A DNA stretch of 37,792 nucleotides from a virus (IMGVR_UViG_2690316153_000015), one strand, 5' to 3'; numbered from the stretch's first letter, positions 1,826-35,298 are shown. A program made the numbers and translations. The notes: generated from the sequence alone by a model not told the origin.

Positions 1826-1831
1826 TCATAA

Positions 1832-2508: not shown

Positions 2509-2518
2509 CAGGTGCTTT

Positions 2519-2797
2519 ATGACCAAAGAGCATGCACAAGGTGTATTTATCCGTTTTATTGATTTTCGCGGTGAACTGTTATTACGCGCATCAGCTATTG
2601 ATGGAGTCGTCCCATCAAAAAAAAATGCAGCTACTTACGTTTATCTGAACGGCACGCGCCTGACCGTAGAACTTCCGTACCAGACTGTACACGAAATCAT
2701 TAGCGAAGCTGAAAAAGCACGTAATATTAATGGCGATAAACCCTATATCGAAATTATCTGCATGGATTCAGAAGCTGAAATTCAGAAAGCAGATTAA
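2519..2797 (+). CDS. Hypothetical early protein
   Basis: 92-aa ORF starting MTKEHAQGV, tightly packed in the early operon. Confidence 0.5.
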   Translation: MTKEHAQGVFIRFIDFRGELLLRASAIDGVVPSKKNAATYVYLNGTRLTVELPYQTVHEIISEAEKARNINGDKPYIEIICMDSEAEIQKAD

Positions 2798-2808
2798 AGG
2801 ACGTTTCG

Positions 2809-3051
2809 ATGGGCAAAGAATATAAAACTCTCATTAACAAAGCACTTGAGCGTTTTTATTTTCGCTTAAGTGCATCAGGCGCGCATGCTGAACGTGCAGC
2901 CCGTGACTCATTGACCAGGGCAATCCGGAGTCTGTATGACGTGGCTTTTTACGCTGATGATCTGGATGCACTTAACGAACTTTCCGAGCTGATCTGTGCC
3001 GCAGAATGCGGGGAACATATTGAACCGTATAAGCTGGGGAATATCGCATGA
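2809..3051 (+). CDS. Hypothetical early protein
   Basis: 80-aa ORF, RBS-like GGACG upstream, start/stop packed with neighbours. Confidence 0.45.
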   Translation: MGKEYKTLINKALERFYFRLSASGAHAERAARDSLTRAIRSLYDVAFYADDLDALNELSELICAAECGEHIEPYKLGNIA

Positions 3052-3161
3052 GTATATTTATCTCATGGCTTGTTCTGATTATTTCGGTGGCCTGCGCCAT
3101 TGGGATTATGCGAATTATTAATTCAGTGAAAAAGATTGAACGCTTTTTCACTGGCGAATAA
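3048..3161 (+). CDS. Possible 37-aa hydrophobic peptide (MSIFISWLVLIISVACAIGIMRIINSVKKIERFFTGE)
   Basis: ATG overlaps the stop of the upstream ORF (ATGA); single TM-like segment; not in the supplied ORF track because it is under 60 aa. Confidence 0.3.
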   Translation: MSIFISWLVLIISVACAIGIMRIINSVKKIERFFTGE

Positions 3162-3247
3162 CAGCGCAAATAAAACCACAGGTTAAATAAGAAAATGTAA
3201 AAACAATCCGCATTCGCGGAGGTATTCACACACGCCAAGGAGGCGTA

Positions 3248-3451
3248 ATGGCAATTAAGCATTTTCCTGTCGTTCGTTTTACCTCCAGAGGACGTGAATA
3301 CGAAGTCGACGAACGCCTGATTACCACAATCGACAAACACCGTTCGGAAAAGGATGCACACCACATCTACCTCACTGACGGCACTTACTTCTGCGCCACC
3401 AACGTGGCGCGGGTGAATCTTATCCGACAAGTACAGGAGCCACGCAGATGA
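3248..3451 (+). CDS. Hypothetical early protein
   Basis: 67-aa ORF with GGAGG RBS upstream; stop overlaps next start. Confidence 0.5.
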   Translation: MAIKHFPVVRFTSRGREYEVDERLITTIDKHRSEKDAHHIYLTDGTYFCATNVARVNLIRQVQEPRR

Positions 3452-3714
3452 CCATTCTGGACTACATCGCTACCCATCCGGGTTGTAGCGGCGGAGAAAT
3501 CGCCGCAGCACTGAATACCCCAACCACAGCCATCAATGCTGAGTTACGCCGACTCTGGCGCGGCGGCTTAGTCATCAGAACAAACCGCAGCACAGGTGGT
3601 CGCGCTCGCAAAGCAGGAGGCCAAGCTTCTTACCACGTAAACCCGATGCCGTTCGGGTGTAGCAATCCACTTACTCACATGTTTAACCAGCTACTGAAGG
3701 AAACCAGAGCATGA
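3448..3714 (+). CDS. Hypothetical early protein, possible DNA-binding
   Basis: 88-aa ORF, translationally coupled to neighbours (ATGA overlaps). Confidence 0.5.
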   Translation: MTILDYIATHPGCSGGEIAAALNTPTTAINAELRRLWRGGLVIRTNRSTGGRARKAGGQASYHVNPMPFGCSNPLTHMFNQLLKETRA

Positions 3715-4010
3715 GCACCATCAATCACCAGAAGCTACGCGAACTGGCATTTGCCCTGCAACGAATGGCAACGCCTCAAAAATTACTGGTATTTCGCGCA
3801 ATGCTCTCGCCGTCTGCTGTGCTGGCACTGCTGGATGAGCTGGAGCACGCCAGAACCACGGCTCCTGCCATTCGTCTGACGCTCCATCATGAAATCGCTG
3901 ATTTCTGCGCGACGTTGAAGGCGCCAGGCGAACCGGAAACACCGGAAGCAATACAGCAAGAACTGCTGCAACGCATTGACAAGGTTTTTGATTTTTTTCT
4001 GAACCAGTAA
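3711..4010 (+). CDS. Hypothetical early protein
   Basis: 99-aa ORF, translationally coupled. Confidence 0.5.
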   Translation: MSTINHQKLRELAFALQRMATPQKLLVFRAMLSPSAVLALLDELEHARTTAPAIRLTLHHEIADFCATLKAPGEPETPEAIQQELLQRIDKVFDFFLNQ

Positions 4011-4132
4011 GAAACCAGAACATGCACACACAAAAAAACCGCTTGCCATGCCGCAATCAGTCAGGTTACATTTCCGCTGCACCTCACAAAACGGGTGTCG
4101 GGTTTCGCAGCCTGCTGACTACACAAGCGCAC

Positions 4133-4153
4133 AACCGCGCCAGCGGTTTTTTT
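4133..4153 (+). terminator. Putative intrinsic terminator (AACCGC-GCCA-GCGGTT followed by T7)
   Basis: Short GC hairpin followed by a run of T directly visible in sequence. Confidence 0.4.
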
Positions 4154-4332
4154 GTGCGTACTGTATTGCCACGTTTTTTTCGCGTCAGAATTATGGCGGG
4201 GCGTACGGGGCCGACTTCGGTCGGGCCGGGTTCTTGTGTAGCCGGTACTGCGAACCTCGTACGTCTCGCCACCCACAGTTTCGCAGCTCTGGATGGTGAG
4301 TTTTCACAACTTACTACACAAGGGGCCACACC

Positions 4333-4563
4333 ATGGCAAACCGCAAACCACACCGCGCTATCGCGGAGAGTCGTCACATCCAGACTGAAATCAACCGCAG
4401 ACTTTCCCGCGCATCACGCGTCGCGCAAATCATGCACATCAATATGCTGCATGAGCGCAGCCACGCACTATCAAACATTTATTCCGCCTCTGTTTTCAGC
4501 TATCTGGCGGATGATCTGCACGAGCTTCAACAGCTCATCCAGCAGCAAAACAAACTCCATTAA
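4333..4563 (+). CDS. Hypothetical protein
   Basis: 76-aa ORF preceded by GGGGCC...ACCATG; no recognisable motif. Confidence 0.4.
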   Translation: MANRKPHRAIAESRHIQTEINRRLSRASRVAQIMHINMLHERSHALSNIYSASVFSYLADDLHELQQLIQQQNKLH

Positions 4564-4635
4564 TTCCTGTTCCGGGCCTTTCCTGCACCTTGCGGCGGGA
4601 GGCCTTCGCACATCTGTAACAAGAGGATTGCCGCA

Positions 4636-5001
4636 ATGATTCTCGCCAACGACTTTCTTGAATACCTGCTCAACACAGAACGTGATCTTGCCGCTCGCGT
4701 GCGTGATCGTTATGACATGTACCTGAAATCCCTGCCTGTACCGCAGCTCGCTGACGGAAAGATTGTTATTGATGGTCGCTACATGATTGACAGCCACGAG
4801 GGAAATTACAGGCTTTACCGCATTGAAGGTGGCACCCCGTCCGTTATTGGCATTTACCAGCGCCCATCCTCTGCAATCGTCGATGTGATTGCCGACAGCA
4901 TCCGCATCACACATCGCCATGCCGACACAGAAGACACCGTGCTGGAAATTCAGCGGCTGGCTACAGTCTGCCGCGACACCCTGAATGGCATGACGAAGTA
5001 A
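4636..5001 (+). CDS. Hypothetical protein immediately upstream of A
   Basis: 121-aa ORF with AGAGGA RBS-like sequence; stop 7 nt before A start. Confidence 0.5.
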   Translation: MILANDFLEYLLNTERDLAARVRDRYDMYLKSLPVPQLADGKIVIDGRYMIDSHEGNYRLYRIEGGTPSVIGIYQRPSSAIVDVIADSIRITHRHADTEDTVLEIQRLATVCRDTLNGMTK

Positions 5002-8869: not shown

Positions 8870-9185
8870 AATGACGACACCAACCAGACGGATAAGTTTC
8901 TATCTGAAGCCCGCCGCCGTCAAGAGTGAACAGGAGGCGTGCAATTACCTCGATAGCCTGCCAGCCTCCGAACGCAGCCGCGCGCAACGCGCGGCCTTTC
9001 TGGCTGGGCTAGCGCTCATAAAGCGCAACCCAGCATTTGCCTACTGGATGGCCGAATGGCCAGAGGACAACCTCCCCTTCAATACCGTTAGCATCAAGGA
9101 AACATACCAGGATAATCAGCCTAGCGGAGTTGAATGCAATTTTTATAAAATAAAAAAGAATATTCAAACCTTATTCCCAGAATAA
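8870..9185 (+). CDS. parR: ParR-like centromere-binding adaptor (ribbon-helix-helix)
   Basis: Start ATG at 8870 with AAGGAG RBS; RRISFYLKP...LDSLPASERSRAQRAAFLAGLAL resembles R1 ParR (…LDSIPQGERSRLNRAALTAGLAL); the longer track ORF from 8736 would overlap parM. Confidence 0.7.
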
Positions 9186-9234
9186 TCTGATAATTGTATG
9201 TGAACTAATAAAATACAGACCAACACATCATTCT

Positions 9235-9257
9235 GGCACCCTTGCTAACAGGGTGCC
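9235..9257. terminator. Hairpin GGCACCC-N9-GGGTGCC between convergent parR and the cassette
   Basis: Perfect 7-bp inverted repeat in the 83-bp convergent intergenic gap. Confidence 0.35.
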
Positions 9258-9268
9258 AATGTTTCAAA

Positions 9269-10111
9269 TCATGATGAAATTGCCGAAGTTTTTTTATCGT
9301 GCTGAAGTACCGCAAATGCCATTAAAACCTCAAGAGAATAGCGGCGATAATACTTAACAAAACCATAATAAAATACTCGGGATGCAGCAATACAAAACAA
9401 GAGAAGAAAACAAAAAGGTAACAGCCTGATATTTATATCTATTAAAAAGGATAGAAGGAACAGGAACATAAGCAACCAGACTGAAGCGAGAAAAACAAAT
9501 GTAATGTTTCTACAAAAACCATACAAAGCAACATAGTTTTGCATTTTCACCTGATGATTTTTAGAATGTTCATACACATAATGATAAGCAAGGCGAAAAA
9601 GATCGCCCCTCAAGCCCTTACGTCGATATAGCGTAGATACAGAAAAAACATTTATATAACCATCTCGTATTTGCGGCCAAAAGACTTTAATAAGTATAGA
9701 ATGCAGTGTGGTTTTATGATGTTCTGCTTTATCAAAAGCTGATACAGGAAATAAAAAAACTCCACGGATAAAATTAACTATACTGAACTTAGTATTATGT
9801 CGTTTTATTTTCAGGGAGCTTCTTTTAGAAAACAGATAAATTGAAGGATACCCAAGTTTACTGTTCATGTATTTTTCAATTAAACAGGATGATAGAATAG
9901 ATATGAAGTGACCTGAAATATATGATAGAACGATTAATACCACATATATAAATACACTTATTATTTCTTTATATTTCAGGATATGGTTAAGAATACCTTC
10001 TATATAAACAGGGTTAATTTCAATAGAAAACAAAAAAAGGATAAACAGGAATAACCCACCTGGAATTAGATAGCCCAAAAAGTCATAAAATGAAAACGGA
10101 TTCTGTGTCAC
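9269..10111 (-). CDS. Multi-pass membrane protein, unknown function (cassette gene 2); GTG start
   Basis: 280-aa ORF; at least four long hydrophobic segments; very AT-rich codon usage unlike flanking phage genes; GGGGGA RBS before GTG. Confidence 0.65.
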   Translation of the reverse strand: MTQNPFSFYDFLGYLIPGGLFLFILFLFSIEINPVYIEGILNHILKYKEIISVFIYVVLIVLSYISGHFISILSSCLIEKYMNSKLGYPSIYLFSKRSSLKIKRHNTKFSIVNFIRGVFLFPVSAFDKAEHHKTTLHSILIKVFWPQIRDGYINVFSVSTLYRRKGLRGDLFRLAYHYVYEHSKNHQVKMQNYVALYGFCRNITFVFLASVWLLMFLFLLSFLIDINIRLLPFCFLLLFCIAASRVFYYGFVKYYRRYSLEVLMAFAVLQHDKKTSAISS

Positions 10112-10150
10112 ACTTCCCCCTGTGTTACTTGTAAATTAAAGGGTAAAACA

Positions 10151-10648
10151 TTATTTGTTTTTCCGTAAAGGATTAGCTTTCCATCTTCTTACTAACCATT
10201 CGAATTCTTGATATGTAGTATCCGAATTAATGCTTTCTCTGATTGCTTTAATTAATGGCTCGGCAATATCATATGTCTCTACAACTGTTGTGTAAGATGT
10301 TCTTTTTATCATTTTTTCATCATAAATACCTTCACGAATACTTACAGCAACTCGCTCGTAAAAATTTAAAATATATTGAAATTTTCGACGCTCGGCCATT
10401 TCTTCATCTGTTATTATGCAACCATCACAAGGAAAAACATAAGAACGAAATGATTTGCCTGAACGATGCACTTGTTTCAGGGTATGCAATGACTCTATAT
10501 ATTGCATATCTTGCCGACTCTCAAAAAGAAAGTTGGCCGTTTGAGTTTTTTTTGCGGTACGCACATTGTAGATAATGGTTCCAATGGCAACCAAAACGCC
10601 AAGCAGAACAATAGCATTGCTGATGATTTGTAGTGTTATTGGGTTCAT
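10151..10648 (-). CDS. Single-pass membrane-anchored protein, unknown function (cassette gene 1)
   Basis: 165-aa ORF; N-terminal TM segment ITLQIISNAIVLLGVLVAIGTIIY then ~135-aa soluble domain with CDGC motif; AT-rich; 39 bp upstream of gene 2. Confidence 0.65.
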   Translation of the reverse strand: MNPITLQIISNAIVLLGVLVAIGTIIYNVRTAKKTQTANFLFESRQDMQYIESLHTLKQVHRSGKSFRSYVFPCDGCIITDEEMAERRKFQYILNFYERVAVSIREGIYDEKMIKRTSYTTVVETYDIAEPLIKAIRESINSDTTYQEFEWLVRRWKANPLRKNK

Positions 10649-21979: not shown

Positions 21980-22580
21980 TTCGTTGTTACCACCATCAGC
22001 CAGCAATTTCATGCGTTGTGCCGAAGCCGTCGGAACACGCATTACAGACATTCCGGTAGACCTCAACACACTGTGGTCGCCGGACACCTGCCCGGTGCAT
22101 CTGCTGCCTTATCTCGCCTGGGCGTTTTCCGTTGACCGCTGGGATCGCAACTGGCCGGAAGAGACAAAGCGACAGGTGATTCGTGATGCATGGCTGATAC
22201 ACCGACACAAAGGGACCATCAGCGCACTGCGAAGAGCCGTGGAGCCTCTCGGCTACCTGATTGAAGTAAAGGAGTGGTGGCAACTCAACGAGGAGCCGGG
22301 AACATTTCGCATTGTTGTCGGAGTACTTGATCAGGGCATCACCGATGAAATGTATCAGGAACTTGAGCGCCTTATTGCGGATGCAAAACCAGTAAGTCGC
22401 CATCTGACGGGGCTGGCGATCAGCCTGAGTGTGAACGGAAAGATTTTCGTTGGTACGGGATGCTATCACGGCGATGCCCTGACGGTTTATCCCTACACCC
22501 CGGAGTCCATTATTGTCGAAGGGGATTATTTCCCTGCCCCAGCCATTCATTTAATTGATAATCTGAGAGTAAACGCATGA
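21972..22580 (+). CDS. I: Baseplate / tail-fiber attachment protein (P2 gpI-like)
   Basis: Start MSNSLLPPS at 21972 overlapping J stop; synteny. Confidence 0.75.
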   Translation: MSNSLLPPSASNFMRCAEAVGTRITDIPVDLNTLWSPDTCPVHLLPYLAWAFSVDRWDRNWPEETKRQVIRDAWLIHRHKGTISALRRAVEPLGYLIEVKEWWQLNEEPGTFRIVVGVLDQGITDEMYQELERLIADAKPVSRHLTGLAISLSVNGKIFVGTGCYHGDALTVYPYTPESIIVEGDYFPAPAIHLIDNLRVNA

Positions 22581-24217
22581 CAGTGAAATACTACGCCATT
22601 CTGACTAATCAGGGCGCGGCACGACTGGCTAACGCGACGATGCTCGGCAGTAAGCTGAATCTGACGCAAATGGCCGTTGGTGATGCAAATGGTGTGTTAC
22701 CAACACCAGACCCTGCACAAACAAAACTGATTAACCAGAAACGCATTGCACCGCTGAATCTTCTGAGTGTTGACCCTAACAATCAGAGCCAGATTATTGC
22801 GGAGCAAATCATCCCTGAAAACGAGGGAGGATTCTGGATCCGTGAGATTGGTCTTTATGATGATGAAGGTGTACTCATTGCGGTGGCAAACTGCCCGGAA
22901 ACGTACAAACCGCAGTTGCAGGAAGGCAGTGGACGCACCCAGACTATCCGCATGATTCTGGTTGTCACGAACACCGAAGCCATCACGCTGAAAATCGACC
23001 CGTCTGTGGTTCTGGCAACCCGCAAATATGTGGATGATAAAATATCAGAGCACGAACAGTCACGACGTCACCCGGACGCCTCGCTGACCGTAAAAGGTTT
23101 TACTCAGTTAAGCAGTGCAATTAACAGTGAATCAGAAACACTGGCCGCAACACCGAAAGCGGTTAAGGCTGCATATGACCTGGCTAACGAGAAATATACC
23201 GCCCAGAACGCCACCACTACACAAAAAGGGATTGTTCAGCTCAGTAGCGCCACGAACAGCACGTCTGAAACACTGGCAGCGACACCAAAAGCTGTTAAGG
23301 CGGTAATGGATGAAACGAACAAGAAAGCACCATTAAACAGCCCGGCACTGACCGGAACGCCAACAACACCAACAGCGCCACAGGGGACTAATAGTACCCA
23401 GATCGCAAGCACGGCTTTCGTTATGGCCGCGATTGCCGCACTTGTAGATTCGTCACCTGATGCACTGAACACGCTGAACGAACTGGCTGCGGCGCTGGGC
23501 AATGACCCGAATTTTGCGACCACCATGACTAACGCGCTTGCGGGTAAGCAACCGAAGGATGCCACCCTGACGGCGCTGGCGGAGCTTGCTACATCAGCAG
23601 ATAAACTCCCATATTTTACAGGGGCAGATCGTGCCGCGTTAACCGCGTTGACAAGTGTTGGACGTGCCATTCTTGGTAAAACCAGCACTCAGGGAGTTCT
23701 TGATTACCTTGGTTTGGGAGAAGGCTCTGCATTACCGGTTGGGGTGCCTGTTCCGTGGCCTTCAGCCACTCCGCCAACAGGCTGGCTGAAATGCAATGGT
23801 GCGGCTTTTTCTGCTGAAGAATACCCGGAACTGGCAAAGGCTTACCCGACCAATAAATTGCCTGATTTACGCGGTGAATTTATTCGTGGCTGGGATGACG
23901 GTCGCGGGATTGATACTGGTCGCGCTTTGCTTAATTGGCAGCCACACACAATTTTGGACCATGCACACTATATGGAATTATGGACAGGGGACGGACTCGC
24001 CGCAGGAAGTGCACGGGAAGGAGTAAACCCAGGAATACTGGCTACATACGGTGACGGGGGAATAGTTAAAACGGACGAACCCGGTCTTAATGTGCCTTCC
24101 TCACTACGAGCTATTAGCTCTCGTAGTGTTAAACGTTATGGTGAAATTAGTGAAAATGTAGGTACAGAAACTCGTCCTCGTAACATCGCTTTTAATTATA
24201 TTGTAAGGGCCGCATGA
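22577..24217 (+). CDS. H: Tail fiber protein (P2 gpH-like); constant N-terminal part fused to the currently expressed variable C-terminal part
   Basis: 546 aa; N-terminus MTVKYYAILTNQGAARLANA; repeated ETLAATPKAVKA motifs; inversion crossover site lies inside the gene at 23697-23722. Confidence 0.85.
   Translation: MTVKYYAILTNQGAARLANATMLGSKLNLTQMAVGDANGVLPTPDPAQTKLINQKRIAPLNLLSVDPNNQSQIIAEQIIPENEGGFWIREIGLYDDEGVLIAVANCPETYKPQLQEGSGRTQTIRMILVVTNTEAITLKIDPSVVLATRKYVDDKISEHEQSRRHPDASLTVKGFTQLSSAINSESETLAATPKAVKAAYDLANEKYTAQNATTTQKGIVQLSSATNSTSETLAATPKAVKAVMDETNKKAPLNSPALTGTPTTPTAPQGTNSTQIASTAFVMAAIAALVDSSPDALNTLNELAAALGNDPNFATTMTNALAGKQPKDATLTALAELATSADKLPYFTGADRAALTALTSVGRAILGKTSTQGVLDYLGLGEGSALPVGVPVPWPSATPPTGWLKCNGAAFSAEEYPELAKAYPTNKLPDLRGEFIRGWDDGRGIDTGRALLNWQPHTILDHAHYMELWTGDGLAAGSAREGVNPGILATYGDGGIVKTDEPGLNVPSSLRAISSRSVKRYGEISENVGTETRPRNIAFNYIVRAA
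23697..23722 (+). repeat. Left inversion crossover site (hix/gix-like 26 bp): TTCTTGATTACCTTGGTTTGGGAGAA
   Basis: Imperfect dyad with central TT; its 12-bp right half is present in inverted orientation at 25562-25573; encodes LDYLGLGE in H. Confidence 0.65.
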
Positions 24218-24819
24218 TGAATAAAGCTGTATTAAATAGCGAACTCATTGCCATAAAAGCGGGAGATATTACCGTTTATAATTATGATGGTGAAACGCGG
24301 GAATATATTTCTACATCAACTGAATATCTCGCTGTCGGCGTCGGTATCCCGGCATGTTCTTGTTTAGATGCACCAGTTACACATAAAGCTGGTTATGCAA
24401 TCTGCCGTTCTGCAGATTTTAACTCATGGGAATATGTACCAGACCATCGCGGTGAAATCATCTATAGCACCGAAACAGGAGAATCGAAAGAAATCACAGC
24501 TCCGGGTGATTATCCTGAAAATACAACCACTATCGCCCCGTTAACGCCATACGATGAATGGGATGGTGAGAAATGGGTGACAGATACTGAGGCACAGCAT
24601 AGCGCCGCAGTAGGCGCGGCAGAAGCACAGCGTCAGTCACTGATTGATACTGCAATGGCTTCCATTAGTCTGATTCAACTGAAATTGCAGGCCGGGCGGA
24701 AGCTGATGCAGACAGAAAACCCCCGACTTAACGCTGTGCTGGATTACATTGACGCGGTGACGGCAACAGATACCAGCACAGCGCCGGACGTCATCTGGCC
24801 TGAACTGCCGGAGGCGTAG
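24214..24819 (+). CDS. G: Tail fiber assembly chaperone (P2 gpG-like), currently expressed orientation
   Basis: 201 aa; C-terminal DTSTAPDVIWPELP motif shared with the convergent gene at 24791-25210. Confidence 0.75.
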   Translation: MMNKAVLNSELIAIKAGDITVYNYDGETREYISTSTEYLAVGVGIPACSCLDAPVTHKAGYAICRSADFNSWEYVPDHRGEIIYSTETGESKEITAPGDYPENTTTIAPLTPYDEWDGEKWVTDTEAQHSAAVGAAEAQRQSLIDTAMASISLIQLKLQAGRKLMQTENPRLNAVLDYIDAVTATDTSTAPDVIWPELPEA

Positions 24820-25210
24820 GCCATTCAATATCTGGCGCACCGGAAGTATCGACCAGTTCCAGTGCGTCCAGATAATCCAGCCACAAATTATATTGCGCCA
24901 GTTCCTCACCTTTCAGGCGACCAATCGCCGCTTTACCTGGCCATTGTCTGCTGTTCATGTGCTCGTTGGCTTCATTAATAAGTTTTCTTTTTTTCAAATC
25001 CGCCAATGCAATAAGGTTTTCTTTTGATAAAGGTGGTTGCTCTGTCAAAACCGGATATCCCTCCTGATTGCTGACTATTTTCATGCCATTATCCTGACCA
25101 TCCAGTAGTAACAGCCATTCATCCGTGGTTATCTCAACAGCATCTGAAGGTGCTTTATTTAAATCGGTAAAAAAACCATTTTCTTTTTGTGAATAGAAGT
25201 ATCTATCCAT
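24791..25210 (-). CDS. Alternative tail fiber assembly chaperone (silent orientation)
   Basis: 139 aa; C-terminus VDTSGAPDIEWPTPP parallels G; converges on G at the segment centre. Confidence 0.7.
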   Translation of the reverse strand: MDRYFYSQKENGFFTDLNKAPSDAVEITTDEWLLLLDGQDNGMKIVSNQEGYPVLTEQPPLSKENLIALADLKKRKLINEANEHMNSRQWPGKAAIGRLKGEELAQYNLWLDYLDALELVDTSGAPDIEWPTPPAVQAR

Positions 25211-25213
25211 TTA

Positions 25214-25587
25214 TTAATCTCCAAAAGCAATCCAGTAAGCAAAAGGATTTATTCCTTGCTCAGTCACAGATGACATCAGGGAAAATTGCGATGGTGAAAC
25301 AGGTAACGCTGCAAAACTAACCATTGTTGACACACCTGACCGTGCATTATCGTACGATGCAACAACACAATAATTGGTATTGCTGAAAGATATCGGCAGG
25401 GTGATATTTACAGGTGAGCCTAATGGCCCTGATGCTGATATTCCCATTTGAATGATGGTTCCATCAGGCAATTTTCTCCAGCGATTAGAACTCGGATTTC
25501 TTTTCCAGGCTGACATATCCGGTATCTGATTTTCTCCTGTGCCCACATCCCTTTTCGCCGCTTCTCCCAAACCAACGTTTAAGAAAA
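25214..25587 (-). CDS. Alternative variable C-terminal tail-fiber exon (promoterless; fused to H constant part after inversion)
   Basis: Reading frame through the right crossover site encodes ...NVGLGE in the same frame as LGLGE at the left site; the track ORF 25214..25615 extends past the site to a fortuitous ATG. Confidence 0.6.
25562..25587 (-). repeat. Right inversion crossover site (hix/gix-like 26 bp): TTCTCCCAAACCAACGTTTAAGAAAA on plus strand
   Basis: First 12 bp are the reverse complement of GGTTTGGGAGAA at the left site; 55 bp upstream of the invertase start. Confidence 0.65.
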
Positions 25588-25642
25588 TGCAGAGATTACG
25601 GCTAACTGGCATCATCCCCGGTTTTTATTCAGGGGATCCATC

Positions 25643-26242
25643 ATGCTTATTGGCTATGTCCGCGTATCAACAAATGACCAGAATACAGAATTGCAGCGTA
25701 ACGCGCTGGAGTGCGCAGGATGTGAACTAATTTTTGAAGATAAAATCAGCGGAACGAAATCAGCCAGACCGGGATTGAAAAAACTGATCAGAACGCTATC
25801 AGAAGGAGATACGCTGGTTGTCTGGAAGCTGGACAGACTGGGCAGAAGTATGAAACACCTGATCACGCTTATTGAGGAATTGCGGGAAAAAGGTGTTAAT
25901 TTCCGTAGTCTGACGGACAGCATTGACACATCAACACCCATGGGGCGTTTCTTTTTTCACGTCATGGGGGCTTTAGCCGAAATGGAACGTGAATTAATTG
26001 TAGAGCGTACACTGGCCGGGCTGGCAGCAGCACGCGCACAAGGACGCATTGGCGGACGTCGCCCGAAGTTGACAAAAGAACAACACGAGCAAATAGCGAG
26101 GTTGATTAAAAACGGTCATGACAGGAAACAACTGGCGATCATTTACGACATCGGCATATCGACGATTTATCGTTATCACCCTGTAGGCGATATACAGGCT
26201 GAAGAAACAACCAGGCAGACTCAGGAAAATGAAAACCGCTAA
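25643..26242 (+). CDS. pin: Serine DNA invertase, Hin/Gin/Cin/Pin family
   Basis: 199 aa; N-terminal MLIGYVRVSTNDQ with catalytic Ser, resolvase core, C-terminal HTH; adjacent to the invertible segment. Confidence 0.9.
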   Translation: MLIGYVRVSTNDQNTELQRNALECAGCELIFEDKISGTKSARPGLKKLIRTLSEGDTLVVWKLDRLGRSMKHLITLIEELREKGVNFRSLTDSIDTSTPMGRFFFHVMGALAEMERELIVERTLAGLAAARAQGRIGGRRPKLTKEQHEQIARLIKNGHDRKQLAIIYDIGISTIYRYHPVGDIQAEETTRQTQENENR

Positions 26243-26268
26243 TCTGACCATTAGCGGTTTTGCGTTAA

Positions 26269-26763
26269 TCAAAACAGCCCTTTAACGGAGCTGGCCGCGC
26301 TGTTAAGGGATGATGTGACCTTATCTTTGAAGCCGGACAGCATATCACTGAACGATGAGGATTGCAGGCGCTCCCGCAAATCCTCATCACAGCGTTCAAG
26401 GGTCAGTGAAAATTCTATCTTTTTCGCCTTACCGTAGCGATCAAACTCGGAACGGGTCGTATTCGTTCCAGTCAGGACATACATGCCGTAAATCTGCCCG
26501 ACGCCATCAATCAAAGGCCAGGGTCGTCCTGTATAAGCCTGCGTGGTCAGCAGCGACAGCGACACTTCGCCACCTGTAATTTCAGGATAAAGCACACCAG
26601 AAAGAACGATGCGATCATCACCTGCACCGATATACTGCCAGCTTGCTGAACGGTTAATGCGTTCATTTTTCACATGCCGCCAGCTTTTGTTTTGCTGTAA
26701 CTGCTGATGCGGCAGCGTGCGCAGCTCAAAAACAAACATGCCGTAGATCATCATCATGGCCAT
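26269..26763 (-). CDS. U: Tail protein (P2 gpU-like)
   Basis: 164-aa ORF downstream of the tape measure on the minus strand; start uncertain among several N-terminal Met. Confidence 0.75.
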   Translation of the reverse strand: MAMMMIYGMFVFELRTLPHQQLQQNKSWRHVKNERINRSASWQYIGAGDDRIVLSGVLYPEITGGEVSLSLLTTQAYTGRPWPLIDGVGQIYGMYVLTGTNTTRSEFDRYGKAKKIEFSLTLERCDEDLRERLQSSSFSDMLSGFKDKVTSSLNSAASSVKGLF

Positions 26764-26769
26764 GACTCC

Positions 26770-29613
26770 TCAATCTTTATCGTAAAAACTGCCACGCCCG
26801 GCACGGGCGCGCCGTTCCATTTCTGCCCTGACCATTTCACCGACCAGTTTCGCCAGTTCGCGGGGATTCTGCGTAACAACGTTATGCAGATGAACATGAA
26901 TTTCACCACCAAATTCGGAGGCAACAGGCTCCCGGTTACGGGAAGTTACAGGAACTGATGCCACTGGAGATCGTATAGCCTCCGCCACCGGGCGGGAGCT
27001 GGCCGCAACAACAGTGACCAGCGCCGGAGGCAGCGGAGCCGGGACCACGGGTGTGATATTAATTGCGGGGGCAGGCTTACTGACCTGCGCAATCTTCCGC
27101 TCCTGCCACTCCCCACGAACAGCAAGTGCGCGGGGCAGGTTCTTAAAGACAATATCGCCGGGGCCAATGCGTTTTTTCGTCTCATCAACCAGCTTACCTG
27201 TGTTATCAGCAATTTTGCTGAGTCTGCGTAGCGTCCCGGTATTGCTGTCTGTGAGCGGTTTGTTGTCTTTGGGTTTATCACCTCCGGTGCCATTGCCATT
27301 TTCCACAGGCTTCGGCGGATTGATTTTCGCAAGGTCCCCCTGAAGCAAGGCAACCTTGTCCTGAAGAATGGCCGCACGCTGTGCGTCTTCGATTTTCTTG
27401 CGCGCCTTTTCCGCTTCATCCGGAAGGACGCCAAGTTTTTCAAGTATCCACGCCAGCGTATCCAGTAGCATTTTTGCAGGTGTCAGAACAAGCTGTAACG
27501 CACCGCCAAGAACGTTACCGAATATCTCGCCAGCACTGGTACATTTATCCAGCGTTTCCTTGCTGGACTCCATCGGTGACAGCAGCGATTTAAACCAGTT
27601 AAACACCTGGCTGATCCCGCTTCCGATTGCGTCAAAAACAGGACCAAACCGTTCAAAGGTTTCGCGCAACGGGGTCAGCCTTTCCATAATCCCGCTGAAC
27701 ACCCCGGCAAAAAATGCCCTGATGGGATCCCAGTATTTCCAGATAAGAACGGCAGCTCCGGCAAGCGCAGCCACGATAAGACCAACCGGACTGAACAGCG
27801 CCCCGATAGCGCCTCCCAGTAAAGAAACGGAACCCGTCACCATTCCCCATAGTGCTGGCAGGACCCTGACAGCATTCATTGATCCGGTCAGGAGAGAAAA
27901 ACCAAGACGCAGTTTTGCCAGCGGACCAGCAAGCACACCAATAGCCAGCGACAACGAGCCAACCGTTGCAGTCATTGCCAGCAACGCACCGCCTGCTATC
28001 AGTAGCTGGCGCGTCAGTGCCGGATGGGCCTGCGCCAGCGCCGTCACCCTTGATACCACCCGCGCGAGCCACTGCGTGACAGAACGCAGCGGACCGTCAA
28101 TCAGATCTGCAATGCGGATGCGCAACCCTTCCCATGCACTGCCGAGTGATTTCAGATCGCCGTCAAGGTTGTTGGCCATAACCTTTGCTGTGCGTTCAGC
28201 CTCACCGCGCGCGCCTTCAAGTTCTTTTCTCAGTTTGGGTAAGGAACCGTCACCCGCTGCATCAACGAGCGCCATAAACGATGTGAAAGCCTCTTCTCCG
28301 GCAATGTCCTTAAAGAACGATACCCGGTCAACTTCCCCGTATTTGCGGGTGGCTTTATAAAGGTCGGCCAGCACATCCTCCATCGGGCGCATTTTGCCCC
28401 CGGCATCCGAGACGGACACGCCCAGCTCTTTCAGAGCTTCTGCCGCCGCCTTTGGCGGTGATGCCAGACGAGCCAGGCTGGCACGCATTGCCGTCCCGGC
28501 ATCACTCCCTCTGATGCCCATATTCGCCAGCACGCCAGCCATCGCTGCGGCCTGCTCCAGCGATATTCCCAGCTTACCCGCCACCGGACCTGCATATTTC
28601 ATGGTTTCGCCCAGTGCGCGAAGGTCAGTGTTGGTACGGGTAAACGCTGCGGTGAGTGTGTCACCGACCCGGTCCATCTGGTCAGCAGAAAGGCCGAACT
28701 GCGTCAGGATATTTGAGCCAATATCCGCCGTCTCGCCGAGATCCATGCCGCCAGCCGTTGCCATGCTCAGCACGCCCGGAAGCGCAGCCTGAATGGCCTG
28801 CGGTGTGAAGCCAGCCATTGCAAGAAATGCCTGCCCACTGGCGGCATCGCCTGCGGTGAACTGCGTTTCAGAGCCAAGTTTTAACGCCTGCTCACGCAGC
28901 GCCTTAAACTGCGGGCTGTTCTGGTCGATTCGCGTCAGTGCCTGAACGCGGGACATCTCTTTCCCGAACCCGATCGCAGGCTGCAAAAAACGCCCGGCAG
29001 CATAGCCGCCAGCCGCTGCCGCACCAATTGCCAGCGCACCACCTGTTTTCAGTTTTCCCGCGGTTTCCTGCGCGCGCGAATACCGCTCACGCGCCCGCGT
29101 TACACGCGCAAGCGCCTGCCGTTCGCGTTCAAGCTGGTTGTTGTACTGTTCGGTGCGTCTGATGGCCTGCTGGATGGTGTTATCGCTGCCTGTCAGGGAA
29201 ATGCCGTGGCGTTTCAGCTCTCCGCCAAGCTCCCGCATTTTCTGAATTTCCCGTGTACGCGATTCATTCAGGCGTTCAAGCCGGGTGCTTAACTGCTGCA
29301 TCAGCTTTTGTTGTTTTTCGCTGAGCACTGTACCCGTGCGTTGTAACTGATTAAGGGCGTTAAGCTGGCGTCGTGCTTTCACGACGCCAGCATCCGCTTT
29401 ACTGACAGCGTCGCGGGCGCGCTCAAATGATCGCGCCTGACGCTCGAGATTTTTGATCGCCCCCTGCGTTCGCTGGATGGAGTCACCAAACTGCCCCATC
29501 AGGCGGCGGGCGTTTTCGGCAGGTCGGGTCAGCCTGTCAACGGCGCTGAAAGCGACCCGGATATCAAGAGTCTTCATTGTCTGCATTCCCGCTGCGAAGT
29601 GCCGCCCGCTCAC
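26770..29613 (-). CDS. T: Tail tape measure protein (P2 gpT-like)
   Basis: 947 aa; coiled-coil N-terminus, central Gly/Ala-rich hydrophobic region; preceded by frameshifted chaperone. Confidence 0.88.
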   Translation of the reverse strand: MSGRHFAAGMQTMKTLDIRVAFSAVDRLTRPAENARRLMGQFGDSIQRTQGAIKNLERQARSFERARDAVSKADAGVVKARRQLNALNQLQRTGTVLSEKQQKLMQQLSTRLERLNESRTREIQKMRELGGELKRHGISLTGSDNTIQQAIRRTEQYNNQLERERQALARVTRARERYSRAQETAGKLKTGGALAIGAAAAGGYAAGRFLQPAIGFGKEMSRVQALTRIDQNSPQFKALREQALKLGSETQFTAGDAASGQAFLAMAGFTPQAIQAALPGVLSMATAGGMDLGETADIGSNILTQFGLSADQMDRVGDTLTAAFTRTNTDLRALGETMKYAGPVAGKLGISLEQAAAMAGVLANMGIRGSDAGTAMRASLARLASPPKAAAEALKELGVSVSDAGGKMRPMEDVLADLYKATRKYGEVDRVSFFKDIAGEEAFTSFMALVDAAGDGSLPKLRKELEGARGEAERTAKVMANNLDGDLKSLGSAWEGLRIRIADLIDGPLRSVTQWLARVVSRVTALAQAHPALTRQLLIAGGALLAMTATVGSLSLAIGVLAGPLAKLRLGFSLLTGSMNAVRVLPALWGMVTGSVSLLGGAIGALFSPVGLIVAALAGAAVLIWKYWDPIRAFFAGVFSGIMERLTPLRETFERFGPVFDAIGSGISQVFNWFKSLLSPMESSKETLDKCTSAGEIFGNVLGGALQLVLTPAKMLLDTLAWILEKLGVLPDEAEKARKKIEDAQRAAILQDKVALLQGDLAKINPPKPVENGNGTGGDKPKDNKPLTDSNTGTLRRLSKIADNTGKLVDETKKRIGPGDIVFKNLPRALAVRGEWQERKIAQVSKPAPAINITPVVPAPLPPALVTVVAASSRPVAEAIRSPVASVPVTSRNREPVASEFGGEIHVHLHNVVTQNPRELAKLVGEMVRAEMERRARAGRGSFYDKD

Positions 29614-30093
29614 GCCAGCTAACCACTTCGCCGGGCGTCATCATGAAGATTTCGGCGGGCGACCAGTTAAAAATGGCGGCAATATCCGCCACAAAGTCTT
29701 CTATGTGCTCAAAGCACACAACCGTGATCAGGCTTCCGTCGCCTGTTCGTTCTTCCCGCCAGAGTCCGCACCGCTCAAAAAATTTACGGCAACCACACAT
29801 AACTGAATAAAGTCACGGGATGCCATTTTTTTGATCGTCACTTCATCCAGTCGCGGTGATGTCACGCGTGACAGCAGCGTAAACATGGATTCCGCTTTCA
29901 GATTCAGCACATCAGACAGCGACAAATCTCGCAGAGATCCAGCCTGCTCAATAGCCCCGGTGATCTCCACATACGTGATTTTTTCGCCGCCTCGCTCAAT
30001 GGGTTGGGTAAGTTTTACGCCACGCTCACTGGTTTCTTTCACAGTGTCAGTAACTACCGTGTTTTCGGTATCGATGTTTTTCGTCTCTTTCAT
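29564..30093 (-). CDS. E+E' tail chaperone fusion product made by programmed -1 frameshift
   Basis: Slippery heptamer T_TTT_TTG on the minus strand (plus-strand CAAAAAA at 29776-29782) inside E; the -1 frame ORF 29564..29800 continues from it. Confidence 0.65.
29728..30093 (-). CDS. E: Tail assembly chaperone (P2 gpE-like)
   Basis: 121-aa ORF with AAAGGAG RBS between tail tube and tape measure. Confidence 0.75.
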   Translation of the reverse strand: MKETKNIDTENTVVTDTVKETSERGVKLTQPIERGGEKITYVEITGAIEQAGSLRDLSLSDVLNLKAESMFTLLSRVTSPRLDEVTIKKMASRDFIQLCVVAVNFLSGADSGGKNEQATEA

Positions 30094-30147
30094 CAGGAAA
30101 CTCCTTTCAGTCAGAGGCGACGCACTGCGTCGCCTGCATATTACTTA

Positions 30148-30660
30148 TCAGCCAAGCCCAAGCGCGGAACGGATGCGATCGGGCACAATGTCCTTGCCGT
30201 CCTTCCGGTAGATGTGGTTCAACAGGTCGATTTCCCACAGCGGGCGATCGTTAACGCTCAGCTTGTAGTAGGTGTTTTTGACAGCGTAAGTGTGTGATGT
30301 GGCTTCGCCCTGTTTGGCTTCCCCCATATCAATTTCCGTCACACGCCCGCGCATCTCGATTTCATACAGATCGCTTTCTGCATCGGTGTAGTATTCACCC
30401 GCAAAACGCAGCAGCGTGCCGTCAATCGTGCCGCCATACTTAAGGAACAGCTCACGAACTGCGCCCCCCATGACAAAGCTCGCATCAAGCGCGGAGTCAT
30501 CCAGGCCGAGATCAATACTTACCGCTCCCATCATGCCACCACCCCGGTAGCTGTCGGTTTTGCGCGTCAGCTTAGGCAAAGTGACGGACGTCACCTTACC
30601 CACTTCGTTTTCACCATCCACAAACAGCGTAAAAAAGCGAAGATGTTTTGGCACAGCCAT
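30148..30660 (-). CDS. FII: Tail tube protein (P2 gpFII-like)
   Basis: 170-aa ORF directly after the sheath gene; synteny. Confidence 0.85.
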   Translation of the reverse strand: MAVPKHLRFFTLFVDGENEVGKVTSVTLPKLTRKTDSYRGGGMMGAVSIDLGLDDSALDASFVMGGAVRELFLKYGGTIDGTLLRFAGEYYTDAESDLYEIEMRGRVTEIDMGEAKQGEATSHTYAVKNTYYKLSVNDRPLWEIDLLNHIYRKDGKDIVPDRIRSALGLG

Positions 30661-31844
30661 CAGGCACCTCCCAGCACCGCAAATGCGGGTTCAAAGTATT
30701 CATCAGTAAACGTCTGGTAAAGCTCCATGTCTTCCAGTGGCGGAACGGGCGTATATTTGTAGCGAATACGCACACGCCCCTGACGTAAATCCGTGGTGCT
30801 GTTATCCACCACGTCATACCAGCACTCCGCGCCAATCAGTTTCCCGGCAGTCACCAGTGAATCCAGTTTTGCCCTGATGGCACTGATAACATCCTTCACG
30901 TTCGCAGGCGTCAGTGGACTGTCGATGGTTTCAAACTGCGCTTCCGCAATTGAATCAGCCAGCACCTGTGCGGTTCGGGTATACACCTCAAAAATGTAGG
31001 CGTTCGTTTCCGGTGTGCGGTTGCCCCAGAAGCGGAACCCGTTGCGACGAATAATGGTCGTGATTTCTTTGTTGTTGAGGCTGTTGGCATCGCTGTCTTC
31101 GGCCTGCAACGACCAGAACACATGCCTCGACATCCCCAGCACATTTTTAACCGGAACGTTGGACAGCGATTTGTGCCAGCCCTGCTCATGGTCAATGTAC
31201 GCACGAAGGCCGCACGCATAAGCAGGCGCGGGGAACGTTTCGTTTTCGCCACTTTTCGGGTTGTAGGCGATGAAGTCCGGCCATAAGAGCATCACTTCAC
31301 GTTCGTTGAATTTCTGGCGGTAGGTAATCGCTTCAGCCATCGTGTTACAGCCGTGACATGAGGCATACACAAATGCGCGCAGTTTACCCGCAATCACGCA
31401 CAGGGATTTTGTCACCGCCTCCGTGTCCAGCTCCGGCGCGGCCAGAATACGCGGACGGTATCCGATGCTTTCATCCTGCTCTGCAACAAGCAGCGCATAC
31501 ATCCCCGTATAGCTGCCGTCATCCTCAGAACCACCGATAACCAGTTGATCCTGCGTCTTTTCGTCTTCTTCTTTGTGTTCAGCCACGCGAACGACGATCA
31601 CCTTTGTGCTCACCTGGTCTGCGATGGCCTTAAGCGCACGATAAAGCGTCCCCGTTGTTCCGCATTTTCCCAGCACGTCATTGACGCGGGTCAGCAGTGT
31701 GGGCTTGTTCAGCGGGAACAGCTTCGCGTCCGCATCATCCGCCGTTGCCACGATACCGATAACGCTGGAATCAACATCGTTAATCGCTGTTACCAGGTCG
31801 GTATTTTCCGTAACACGGGCACCATGAAAACGAGTTTCACTCAT
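30660..31844 (-). CDS. FI: Contractile tail sheath protein (P2 gpFI-like)
   Basis: 394-aa ORF, first gene of the leftward tail operon. Confidence 0.88.
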   Translation of the reverse strand: MSETRFHGARVTENTDLVTAINDVDSSVIGIVATADDADAKLFPLNKPTLLTRVNDVLGKCGTTGTLYRALKAIADQVSTKVIVVRVAEHKEEDEKTQDQLVIGGSEDDGSYTGMYALLVAEQDESIGYRPRILAAPELDTEAVTKSLCVIAGKLRAFVYASCHGCNTMAEAITYRQKFNEREVMLLWPDFIAYNPKSGENETFPAPAYACGLRAYIDHEQGWHKSLSNVPVKNVLGMSRHVFWSLQAEDSDANSLNNKEITTIIRRNGFRFWGNRTPETNAYIFEVYTRTAQVLADSIAEAQFETIDSPLTPANVKDVISAIRAKLDSLVTAGKLIGAECWYDVVDNSTTDLRQGRVRIRYKYTPVPPLEDMELYQTFTDEYFEPAFAVLGGA

Positions 31845-32001
31845 AGCTTCAGCCCCTTGTATCCGTTAAATGATTCGGCAACAATCATCACCCACCACGC
31901 GCGTAATCTCACCCCTGCGCCGTTCTCCCGCCACGGCGACAACAAAAAGCAGTAACCCCCTCCGCACGCACATGCGACCATGCCACACAGGGAGGGAGCA
32001 G

Positions 32002-33111
32002 ATGACCGACACCACCATGCAATTGCTCAGTCAGGGCACAGACCCCGTGAAAATGCCGGATTTTGATATTCTCGCCGAGGGTAAAACGCTGTCCGGCGTG
32101 GCAGAACGCCTGATGAGCCTGTCACTGACCGACAACCGGGGATTTGAGGCGGACCAGCTCACCATCACGCTGGATGATGCCGATGGCCAGTTGCAGCTAC
32201 CGCCACGGGGCGCGCGTCTGACGGTTCTCATTGGCTGGAAAGGGGAACCGCTGACAGAAAAAGGCACTTACATTGTTGATGAAATCGCTCACGAAGGACC
32301 GCCGGACAGGCTGACTGTTTCAGCCAGAAGCGCAGATTTTCGGGATGAATTTAACGTTAAACGTGAGGTGTCCTGGCATGATGTGACCGTTGAGCGTGTG
32401 GTATCCGCCATCGCTCATCGGTATGGTCTGAAACCGCAAATCAGCGAAATGCTGATGGATATCGAAATCGACCACGCCGACCAGACCGAAGAAAGCGACA
32501 TGTCCTTCCTTACGCGCATGGCGGAAATGCTGGGCGCAATCACCACGGTAAAAAGCGGTAATCTGTTATTCATCATGCCCGGTGGTGGCGTGAACGCACA
32601 GGGCCAGCCGTTGCCCTCGTTCGCCATCACACGCAACAGCGGCGATCGCCATCAGTTCCGCATTGCTGACCGCGAAGCGTATACGGGGGTACGCGCTTAC
32701 TGGCTTGATCTTAATTACGGGAAAAAGAAAAAAGTCAGCGTGAAACGCCGCAAACCGTCAAAACCAAAAAAGGAGAAAAGCAGCAGCCGGGAAGGCGACT
32801 ATATGGAAGGTGCGGAAGGCAACGTGTTTGTGTTACGCAAAACTTATCAGAACGAGCAGGCAGCAAGACGCGCAGCGGCGGCAAAGTGGCAGCAGCTACA
32901 ACGCGGAGCCGCATCATTCTCCATCACGCTGGCGCGTGGACGTGCAGAACTCTACCCCGAAATGCATGGCACGGTAACAGGATTTAAAAACGAGATTGAT
33001 AATCAGGACTGGATTATTGCAAAAGCCGAGCACACCATTGATAACAGCGGCTTTACCACGCAGCTTGAGCTTGAGGCAAAAATCCCGGAATGGATAGCAG
33101 AAACAGAGTGA
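32002..33111 (+). CDS. D: Tail protein D (P2 gpD-like)
   Basis: Probable start MTDTTMQLLSQ at 32002 after GGAGGGAG; divergent from the sheath operon. Confidence 0.8.
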   Translation: MTDTTMQLLSQGTDPVKMPDFDILAEGKTLSGVAERLMSLSLTDNRGFEADQLTITLDDADGQLQLPPRGARLTVLIGWKGEPLTEKGTYIVDEIAHEGPPDRLTVSARSADFRDEFNVKREVSWHDVTVERVVSAIAHRYGLKPQISEMLMDIEIDHADQTEESDMSFLTRMAEMLGAITTVKSGNLLFIMPGGGVNAQGQPLPSFAITRNSGDRHQFRIADREAYTGVRAYWLDLNYGKKKKVSVKRRKPSKPKKEKSSSREGDYMEGAEGNVFVLRKTYQNEQAARRAAAAKWQQLQRGAASFSITLARGRAELYPEMHGTVTGFKNEIDNQDWIIAKAEHTIDNSGFTTQLELEAKIPEWIAETE

Positions 33112-33231: not shown

Positions 33232-34254
33232 TTAATACGCATTTAATTTAAATTTGTATTTGCCTTCTATGTAATGGATAAATTCAATTATGCTTTTTTC
33301 TATCGCATCTAATATATGAATATATCCATCCCGATTTAAGGTCCTATCCAACTCAAAGTGATGAACTATCCCATGTCTATATTGTATGATTTCAGAAATT
33401 CGATTCTCAAGAAAATCAACTGATTTTCCAATTCTTTTTTTCTTATAAAGAATCGCTCTCACATCTATATCCAGCCACTCTTTATATGCTTTGTTTAGGT
33501 GGGTTAAGTTTTGAAAAGTGTAATTTCTTGCAATAACACTTTCTATTGAAATATTTCCTTTCTCTATCTCAAGCAGAATATCAAAATCAACTTTTTGCTT
33601 ATACGATGTTCTTTTTGCTATTGCGAAAGGATCGTACTTTATAAGTATTTGAAAAGCTCTAGAGAAAAAGTATTCAAACATAGCAACCGCAAAAGGTACT
33701 AATCCATTATATATAACTCTACTGGGATCCATACATTGCATGTAATCAAAGTATTCGGATAAGCCGCCATCTTCCGGTAGGTTTAATTTAATAGAAGGTT
33801 CAGGTAAGGCATGTTTAACAGCGGAAATCTCATGATGGACATGATTAAATATTGAAGAAATGCCACGACTGATCGGACTACTAGAATCCTTCCATAGAGG
33901 AGCGTACCTATTTTTCCCATAATCACCTATAAGTGTTCCACCAAAAAGACTCCTTGCGCCTTTTAGAACATCATTAAGCATTTTTACATCATGCCAACTA
34001 GCGCTATATAAATTACGCACATGCAATGCCCATTTATTACCAGATATGTGTAATTCGTCATTTGAAACAGGATATATATCAGCCGAAACTCCATCTGTAG
34101 ATTTGAAGTCCGTATCATCAAACCAAGAGTAATTCAACGTTCCTTGGGGCCATCCCCACAAATGTTTACACCTTTTAAAACCTAAATTTTCAAGGTAATT
34201 TTTAAGTTCGTTTCTAGTTGCTTTTTTAGGGTACAGCGTTATATCTCTTCCCAT
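33232..34254 (-). CDS. AT-rich hypothetical protein with C-terminal R-x4-H (HEPN-like) motif
   Basis: 340-aa ORF; low GC relative to backbone; motif YRHGIVHH near the C-terminus; inserted between D and ogr. Confidence 0.6.
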   Translation of the reverse strand: MGRDITLYPKKATRNELKNYLENLGFKRCKHLWGWPQGTLNYSWFDDTDFKSTDGVSADIYPVSNDELHISGNKWALHVRNLYSASWHDVKMLNDVLKGARSLFGGTLIGDYGKNRYAPLWKDSSSPISRGISSIFNHVHHEISAVKHALPEPSIKLNLPEDGGLSEYFDYMQCMDPSRVIYNGLVPFAVAMFEYFFSRAFQILIKYDPFAIAKRTSYKQKVDFDILLEIEKGNISIESVIARNYTFQNLTHLNKAYKEWLDIDVRAILYKKKRIGKSVDFLENRISEIIQYRHGIVHHFELDRTLNRDGYIHILDAIEKSIIEFIHYIEGKYKFKLNAY

Positions 34255-34896: not shown

Positions 34897-35037
34897 ATGT
34901 CGCAAAAATCGCTTACAGCCATCACGTTCTGCGTGACGGTAATCCTCATCATCTGGATGTTGCACGGTTCGCTGTGCGAAATACGGATGAGTTTCTGGGG
35001 AGCGGAGTTTGCGGCGTTCTTACAGTGTAAGCAGTAA
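34897..35037 (+). CDS. Hok/Gef-family type I toxin (46 aa: MSQKSLTAITFCVTVILIIWMLHGSLCEIRMSFWGAEFAAFLQCKQ)
   Basis: Single TM helix followed by the conserved SLCEIR...E.AAF signature of Hok/Gef peptides; AAGGAG RBS; GC hairpin GACGGGGGA-GTAAT-CCCCCGTC downstream; absent from the ORF track because under 60 aa. Confidence 0.65.
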   Translation: MSQKSLTAITFCVTVILIIWMLHGSLCEIRMSFWGAEFAAFLQCKQ

Positions 35038-35298
35038 GGAAACCGCGACGGGGGAGTAATCCCCCGTCAATCGGTTGCCAGGGTAAGGTCGATAAGGCAC
35101 CCTATCTCACGGCTCTAAATGCAAAAATTCCATGAAACTGTGGGATTTTTGCATCACTACTGATACAGATCTGCCCTTCTATATGTCTCACTCTATACCA
35201 GCTAATCAATTGACACTTATCAATAAAAAAAAATCTGATAAAATCAAAATGTTTTGTAACAAATATCAACTCGTATTGATCCAAAGGAGGCGGATTAC

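Follow-up and report, generated by a model that had tools for sequence, protein, structure and literature searches.

The stretch IMGVR_UViG_2690316153_000015, referred to here as the window, comprises 37,792 nucleotides, of which positions 22,581 to 26,242 are displayed; all positions are counted from its first letter. It represents a stretch of E. coli chromosome carrying a prophage of the P2 family, and the queried region is 99.9% identical to E. coli WS3294A (NZ_CP035819). Where the baseplate and tail-fibre gene series V-W-J-I-H of this prophage ends, the tail-fibre gene H runs into a segment that is bounded by two short sites in inverted orientation and contains two alternative C-terminal cassettes with a chaperone gene each, and a serine recombinase gene follows. 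It is very probable that this is a working two-state invertible tail-fibre segment of the Pin/Gin type in a P2-like (Gemsvirus-like) E. coli prophage. The following features are found at the locus.

22577-24217, plus strand: gene H, encoding a fibre of 546 amino acids as now oriented; its constant part (amino acids 1-378) extends up to the crossover
23697-23722: left 26-bp site, TTCTTGATTACC TT GGTTTGGGAGAA (as a whole TTCTTGATTACCTTGGTTTGGGAGAA), with the central TT at 23709-23710 and a score of 15/18
23711-24217, plus strand: Sv(+), the variable C-terminal cassette now fused to H; Pfam Collar, 59.7% identical to StfE of e14
24214-24819, plus strand: Tfa(+), a TfaE-like assembly chaperone of 201 amino acids; Caudo_TAP (8.5e-30), 90.5% identical to TfaE of e14
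24791-25210, minus strand: Tfa(-), a TfaP-like assembly chaperone of 139 amino acids, now silent; Caudo_TAP (3.4e-25), 53.5% identical to TfaP of e14
25214-25573, minus strand: Sv(-), the silent alternative C-terminal cassette of 119 amino acids, starting with GLGEAAKRDVGTG; Pfam Gp53-like_C (1.7e-13)
25562-25587: right 26-bp site, TTCTCCCAAACC AA CGTTTAAGAAAA (as a whole TTCTCCCAAACCAACGTTTAAGAAAA), with the central AA at 25574-25575 and a score of 17/18
25643-26242, plus strand: DNA invertase of the Pin/Gin/Cin/Hin subclass, 199 amino acids; Pfam Resolvase at 3-135 (8.9e-52) and HTH_7 at 138-180 (1.4e-12)
25665-25727, no strand: putative recombinational enhancer in the 5' end of the invertase gene, with candidate 15-bp Fis cores at 25665-25679 and 25713-25727 (motif scan)
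26232-26261, no strand: hairpin with a perfect 12-bp stem where the invertase and gpU genes converge (inverted repeat I13), matched in a scan for terminator-like structures

Crossover sites, alternative tips and the two orientations

Two 26-bp hix-like dyads in inverted orientation were recognized both by reading the sequence and by script. The exact 12-mer GGTTTGGGAGAA occurs twice in the 37.8-kb window, once per strand, where simple arithmetic gives an expectation of about 0.005 exact matches of one 12-mer in 2 x 37.8 kb; when reverse-complemented, the right site reads TTTTCTTAAACGTTGGTTTGGGAGAA. The site pair is also the longest inverted repeat within 22500-26400 (I1, 18 nt, 94% complementary). 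Each 26-mer of the window was scored on both halves, with a maximum of 18, against TTNTCNNAAACC, which we take to be the half-site pattern of the Hin family and which was validated on known systems (Mu, e14 and P1). Only the left (15) and right (17) sites scored at least 13/18, the next best candidate reaching 12, and when the window was shuffled 30 times, 29 of the shuffles contained no site of at least 15 and one contained a single site. The same script recovers the sites of the P segment in e14, the annotated boundaries of the Mu G segment and, in a P1 genome, cix-like sites. The central dinucleotides of the two sites, TT and AA, are compatible only in inverted orientation. Codons 374-382 of H (VLDYLGLGE) hold the left site in frame, the crossover TT falling in codon 378, and at the right site GLGE is encoded in the frame of the minus-strand cassette.

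These results bear out the first-pass annotation of this DNA, which had placed imperfect 26-bp dyads at 23697 and 25562 in inverted orientation, the left one in frame inside H (LGLGE) and the right one in frame with an alternative C-terminal exon. The two convergent tail-fibre chaperone genes and the serine invertase gene that it had read beside them were found as well, as the Caudo_TAP genes and the Resolvase and HTH_7 domains listed above. A multi-site, shufflon-like system was also considered and was rejected, as there are two sites only, the next candidate scores 12/18 and the recombinase is of the serine type. Systems of multiple inversion, such as Min of p15B, the three-repeat module of enteropathogenic E. 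coli (EPEC) and the shufflons, have at least three crossover sites and hence more than two possible arrangements, and shufflons also need the tyrosine recombinase Rci.

According to Pfam, H has a Phage_tail_fib domain at residues 1-150, which is the P2-type N-terminus, followed by Phage_fiber_2 repeats and a Collar domain at 389-436. Its start overlaps the stop of gene I, and its stop overlaps the start of the following tfa gene (ATGA). Sv(+) is predicted to be a collar-type receptor-binding tip; among sequences in the PDB, it matches the tip of T4 gp37 (2xgf, 3.9e-17) and short tail fibres, and it resembles the collar regions of gp37 and gp12. Its phage relatives number 774, with the best identity (70%) in Klebsiella phages. 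For Sv(-), only 55 phage relatives were found, the best of them being 51% identical, in an E. coli phage; identity is about 37% in the Shigella phages SfI, SfII, SfIV and SfV. The two tips thus belong to unrelated families, Collar and Gp53-like_C, each with its own Caudo_TAP chaperone, and the two chaperone genes converge with a 29-bp overlap of their 3' ends (24791-24819). On inversion in silico, H remains open and encodes 497 amino acids, and the 546- and 497-residue products share residues 1-382. The segment has the layout of a fibre switch, with an in-frame crossover inside the fibre gene, a chaperone for each cassette and the two sets on opposite strands. The different Pfam families and the different phage relatives of the tips suggest that they differ in receptor specificity.

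The inversion was simulated at the central dinucleotide, and the predicted left junction was searched in 5,426 complete E. coli genomes. The predicted inverted junction was matched over 801 of its 801 bases in two of them, NZ_CP025856 and NZ_LR882997. In the latter, the sequence that lies between the two crossover points, 1863 bp long, is reverse-complemented relative to the window, with one mismatch and no gap (99.95%), and the flanks are colinear, with 99.6% identity over 11 kb upstream and 96.8% downstream. Because the flipped segment differs at only 1 of 1863 positions and the upstream flank is 99.6% identical, the inversion in NZ_LR882997 appears to be recent. The (-) orientation is found in two backgrounds of unlike divergence (96.5% and 99.6%). 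The exact fusion of 497 amino acids is annotated in both genomes, where the same tfa proteins lie on opposite strands; of the two, only NZ_CP025856 has the identical recombinase protein (WP_000905075.1) in its annotation, and NZ_LR882997 has a recombinase with a different accession. In a census of 15 billion proteins, the exact 546-residue H(+) was present on 42 contigs and the exact 497-residue H(-) derived in silico on 59, these contigs being non-independent samples. In nature, the same constant region occurs with the one tip or with the other, and the breakpoints lie at the predicted sites. In EPEC E2348/69, inversions in two P2-like prophages have been demonstrated by whole-genome sequencing and the polymerase chain reaction (PMC4272514).

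The silent cassette has been handled differently by automatic annotation in the two orientations. In RefSeq, the open reading frame (ORF) of the silent cassette at 25214-25615 on the minus strand is given as a stand-alone 'gp53-like domain-containing protein', which starts at an ATG past the crossover site. In a flipped genome (L002, 13768-14270), it is the other cassette that is silent, and this is annotated as a frameshifted pseudogene. Both calls are annotation artefacts of the switch.

The invertase and its putative control elements

By its sequence, the protein encoded at 25643-26242 is a member of the Hin/Gin/Cin/Pin DNA invertases. The gene begins 56 bp past the right site. Its product is closest to PinE (81.5% identity), followed by Cin (74.7%) and Gin (73.3%). 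The sequences of the Gin crystal structures 4m6f and 3uj3 were matched at E values of about 1e-91 (2.5e-91) over residues 1-185 of the invertase, and the match to gamma-delta resolvase was far weaker (E = 2e-31). The catalytic Ser9 is present and aligns to the position that is substituted by Ala in 3uj3; MLIGYVRVSTNDQ and KLDRLGRS are identical to Gin, and Y5, R7, S9, D64, R65 and R68 are all seen in the sequence. The serine is thus intact and both orientations occur in public genomes, in place of the mutated catalytic Ser and the single orientation that the first-pass annotation had named as signs against a switch. The basic motif of helix B, PGLKKLIR, is common to all six aligned invertases; its residues K46, K47 and R50 presumably correspond to K47, K/R48 and K/R51 of Hin, with an offset of minus 1. 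This motif is conserved in the DNA invertases regulated by Fis and the enhancer and is generally absent in resolvases and integrases (McLean et al., PMC3798978). The features of the family are hence found together, namely the domain layout, a length (199 amino acids) close to the ~190 that are typical, the active-site residues, the similarity to the founding members, the helix-B signature and two inverted 26-bp sites with the same core. In NCBIfam, only sub-threshold matches to other serine recombinases were obtained, with no specific invertase model at cut-off. Inversion would be expected to depend on Fis and on supercoiling, as in the rest of the family.

The identical protein is present on 801 contigs and is labelled multispecies Enterobacteriaceae. 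An invertase that is 97% identical has been catalogued from EPEC E2348/69 and may derive from any of the prophages of that strain. The protein looks like a mosaic: its N-terminal half is nearest to PinE, and the region of the C-terminal helix-turn-helix (HTH; RRPKLTKEQHEQIARLIKNGHDRKQLAIIY) matches that of phage 500465-2. In NC_041848, a record named 'Escherichia phage P2' from O157:H43 T22 (L004, 11995-12489), the invertase has 165 amino acids, diverges after about residue 128 and has no HTH. The switch of that phage may be dead or reliant on an invertase acting in trans.

The genes gin, cin and pinE carry a Fis-binding enhancer in their 5' part, and the coding region of the present gene aligns with all three from the ATG without gaps. 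The candidate Fis cores within it are 48 bp apart, with the nearer one at 97 bp from the right site, and their motif scores are weak. Synonymous codon identity among six related invertase genes is 0.64-0.69 in codons 1-32, as against 0.22-0.52 later in the gene. For Hin, the native distance of the enhancer is about 100 bp (PMC3798978).

A terminator-like hairpin with a T-run was noticed at 25604-25623 on the plus strand, between the right site and the start codon of the invertase. Two P2-like relatives have a closely similar sequence here, and e14 has a partly similar one. One role of the hairpin might be to shield the invertase gene from transcription that reads through from the fibre operon. 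Expression of the invertase in the lysogen would presumably be at a low level. The hairpin at 26232-26261 is a probable bidirectional terminator.

The proposed switch, its alternatives and the surrounding prophage

In the mechanism proposed, invertase dimers would bind both 26-bp sites, Ser9 would make 2-nt staggered cuts at the central TT/AA, and one pair of half-sites would rotate before religation, by which the segment of 1865 bp (centre to centre) would be flipped. We infer this strand-exchange chemistry for the present system. As the segment now lies, residues 1-378 of H, its constant part, are joined to the collar-type tip to give the fibre of 546 residues, followed by the gene of the TfaE-like chaperone. 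In the inverted orientation, the same constant part would be joined to the gp53-like tip to give the fibre of 497 residues, followed by the gene of the TfaP-like chaperone. The cassette pair that faces away from the upstream genes would be silent because it has neither a constant part nor an identified promoter. Through this exchange of silent and expressed cassettes in the lysogen population, two types of virion with different receptor-binding tips would be released, and the swap of tips presumably changes the host range.

Several points weigh against a working switch of this kind. The support for inversion comes from comparison across genomes rather than from reads or from one culture of this strain, and the contig counts of the census are uninformative on the rate of switching. 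The receptor specificities of both tips are predicted from their families, and the PDB sequence search gave no solved relative for Sv(-). The enhancer at 25665-25727 is a candidate drawn from homology, weak motifs with a 48-bp spacing and a modest rise in synonymous identity among six genes. A consensus scan of 25588-25642 for the promoter of the invertase gave no sigma-70-like match.

The last two of these points would also fit a fossil switch, in which the architecture was inherited but inversion has ceased here, either since the invertase is unexpressed or since the enhancer has decayed, and in which the orientations of other genomes are old, fixed events. Decay does occur in the group, as exemplified by the truncated invertase of NC_041848. 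However, the invertase ORF of the window is of full length with all catalytic residues, its identical protein is widespread, both sites have perfect inner halves and matching central dinucleotides, and the (-) orientation is seen in two backgrounds, one at 96.5% and the other at 99.6%. A fossil is thus considered improbable. There is an even smaller chance that inversion is catalysed in trans by another invertase of the Pin/Gin family in the cell, or equally by several, so that the adjacent gene is not the specific driver. Gin, Cin, Pin and Hin cross-complement, and the number of places resembling the region in an E. coli genome has a median of 2 and a maximum of 12, and is 8 in WS3294A; yet action of the gene in cis is compatible with this, and the arrangement is the standard one, in which an intact invertase gene stands close to its cognate sites (here e14-like, with the right one 56 bp away). 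RecA-dependent recombination between short inverted repeats, or an assembly artefact, can practically be dismissed as the source of the opposite orientations: an inverted repeat of 18 nt with 94% complementarity is present, but 18 bp with a mismatch is below the length for efficient RecA recombination, the breakpoints lie exactly at the centre of the hix-like dyads, and both forms are found in complete genomes as well as on contigs of several sources (42 for one form, 59 for the other), which misassembly could hardly explain.

As a fully intact switch of host range in a P2-family prophage, the segment would be a clean case of bet-hedging. It also matters for annotation: the silent cassette appears in RefSeq either as a stand-alone gene or as a frameshifted pseudogene, according to the orientation, and clusters of fibre proteins are split into two isoforms of what is really one gene. 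Little is added beyond that, since the mechanism and the family are well documented and such switching has already been demonstrated in P2-like prophages of E. coli (PMC4272514). The silent gp53-like tip is at most 51% identical to any protein of a cultured phage. Two separate conjectures, both rather long shots, are that this tip might target a receptor or host beyond the usual lipopolysaccharide-core range of E. coli, and that the widespread invertase might cross-act on the several related segments of one genome, coupling the tail-fibre states of prophages residing in the same cell.

The prophage as a whole is a complete-looking P2-like element, and in WS3294A it extends from a phage integrase adjoining pdxB to ogr and a Hok/Gef gene. 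Its gene order matches that of Escherichia phage 500465-2 (Peduoviridae, Gemsvirus). A minus-strand block, FI-FII-E-E'-T-U (window 26269-31844), converges with the invertase gene, and gpD lies on the plus strand (31870-33111); in canonical P2, this block and gpD are all on one strand after fun(Z). The minus-strand FI-U block is likewise found in phage 500465-2, NZ_CP025856 and NZ_LR882997. The invertase was considered as the cause of this arrangement and was rejected, because hix-like sites are absent at either boundary, where there is only a 9-bp inverted repeat, and because the layout is common to 500465-2 and both flipped genomes.

For gpD, RefSeq gives only 266 amino acids and a small partial pseudogene upstream. 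Truncation was rejected, as an ORF of 413 codons is open, with a good Shine-Dalgarno sequence and ATG at 32002 (369 amino acids) and a match to Phage_GPD; the short annotation looks like a problem of start-site choice. Between gpD and ogr, an ORF of 340 amino acids (33232-34254, minus strand) gave a sub-threshold Pfam match to HEPN_RiboL-PSP (22.5 bits, the cut-off being 28.4) and none in PADLOC. This ORF may be a moron or defence gene that occupies a variable slot of P2. ParM-like and partition-protein genes were observed in the early region of the prophage (about 8900-10175) and a Hok/Gef toxin gene after ogr (about 34900-35040); these are maintenance genes of the plasmid style in a P2-like element.

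Comparison with known systems

The first-pass annotation had likened the segment to the G segment of Mu, the C segment of P1 and the P segment of e14. This is supported in that the same scan recovers the sites of these systems and the invertases are 73-81.5% identical; judged from the DNA and protein sequences, the architecture is that of all three, with e14 the closest. Its further statement that canonical P2 lacks such a segment is borne out by the annotation of NC_001895, in which H is followed by G, a terminator, fun(Z) and FI and neither a second cassette nor an invertase is annotated. Phage 500465-2 has the same layout, with H, tfa, tfa', the silent cassette and a gene annotated as DNA invertase, an FI-U block that is likewise on the opposite strand, and sites at equivalent positions. 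It differs in having other variable cassettes, and the region aligns only in parts, at 72-99%; its invertase is 83% identical and its left outer half-site is unlike.

Multi-cassette forms are known among P2-like prophages. The EPEC module has three inverted repeats and four variants (PMC4272514). Prophages with a 97%-identical invertase (L012-L017, about 1300-4950) include multi-cassette versions, and in one of these (L014) five ORFs with collar domains surround a single chaperone gene, a form that resembles the EPEC module with its three repeats and four variants (PMC4272514). These relatives have several collar fragments and one chaperone, whereas the window has two sites and two complete pairs of cassette and chaperone.

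The P1 C/Cin system is similar in its invertase (74.7% identity of Cin) and in the TT/AA core shared by its sites, but the invertase gene of P1 has the opposite placement, being located upstream of the fibre gene. With Mu G/Gin, the segment shares the two-state organization (S/U and S'/U'), the position of the invertase just outside the right site, the 12-2-12 layout of the sites and an invertase that is 73.3% identical to Gin, the structure of which has been solved. The G segment differs in its size of about 3 kb, its central dinucleotide TC/GA and its much longer variable parts, and there is no similarity to Mu at the DNA level beyond the invertase gene.

The P segment of e14, a cryptic prophage of K-12, comprises stfP/tfaP, tfaE/stfE and pinE (PinE being the invertase) and has the same order of elements: the constant part, a site, a cassette with its chaperone, a convergent chaperone with its cassette, a site and the invertase. 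Its left site is CTCTCGAAAACC TT GGTTTGGGAGAA and its right site TTCTCCCAAACC AA CGTTTATGAAAA, so that the inner half-sites and the central dinucleotides are identical to those of the window and the right outer half differs by one base. The invertases are 81.5% identical, and the convergent tfa genes overlap by 29 bp in both systems. In contrast, Sv(-) is only 30% identical to the C-terminus of StfP, and Tfa(-) is 53% identical to TfaP. Whereas e14 is a lambdoid remnant, the segment described here is part of a complete-looking P2-like prophage and has a constant part of the P2 H type, with the Phage_tail_fib N-terminus. The window would express the StfE/TfaE-like state, and the K-12 reference is in the StfP/TfaP state.

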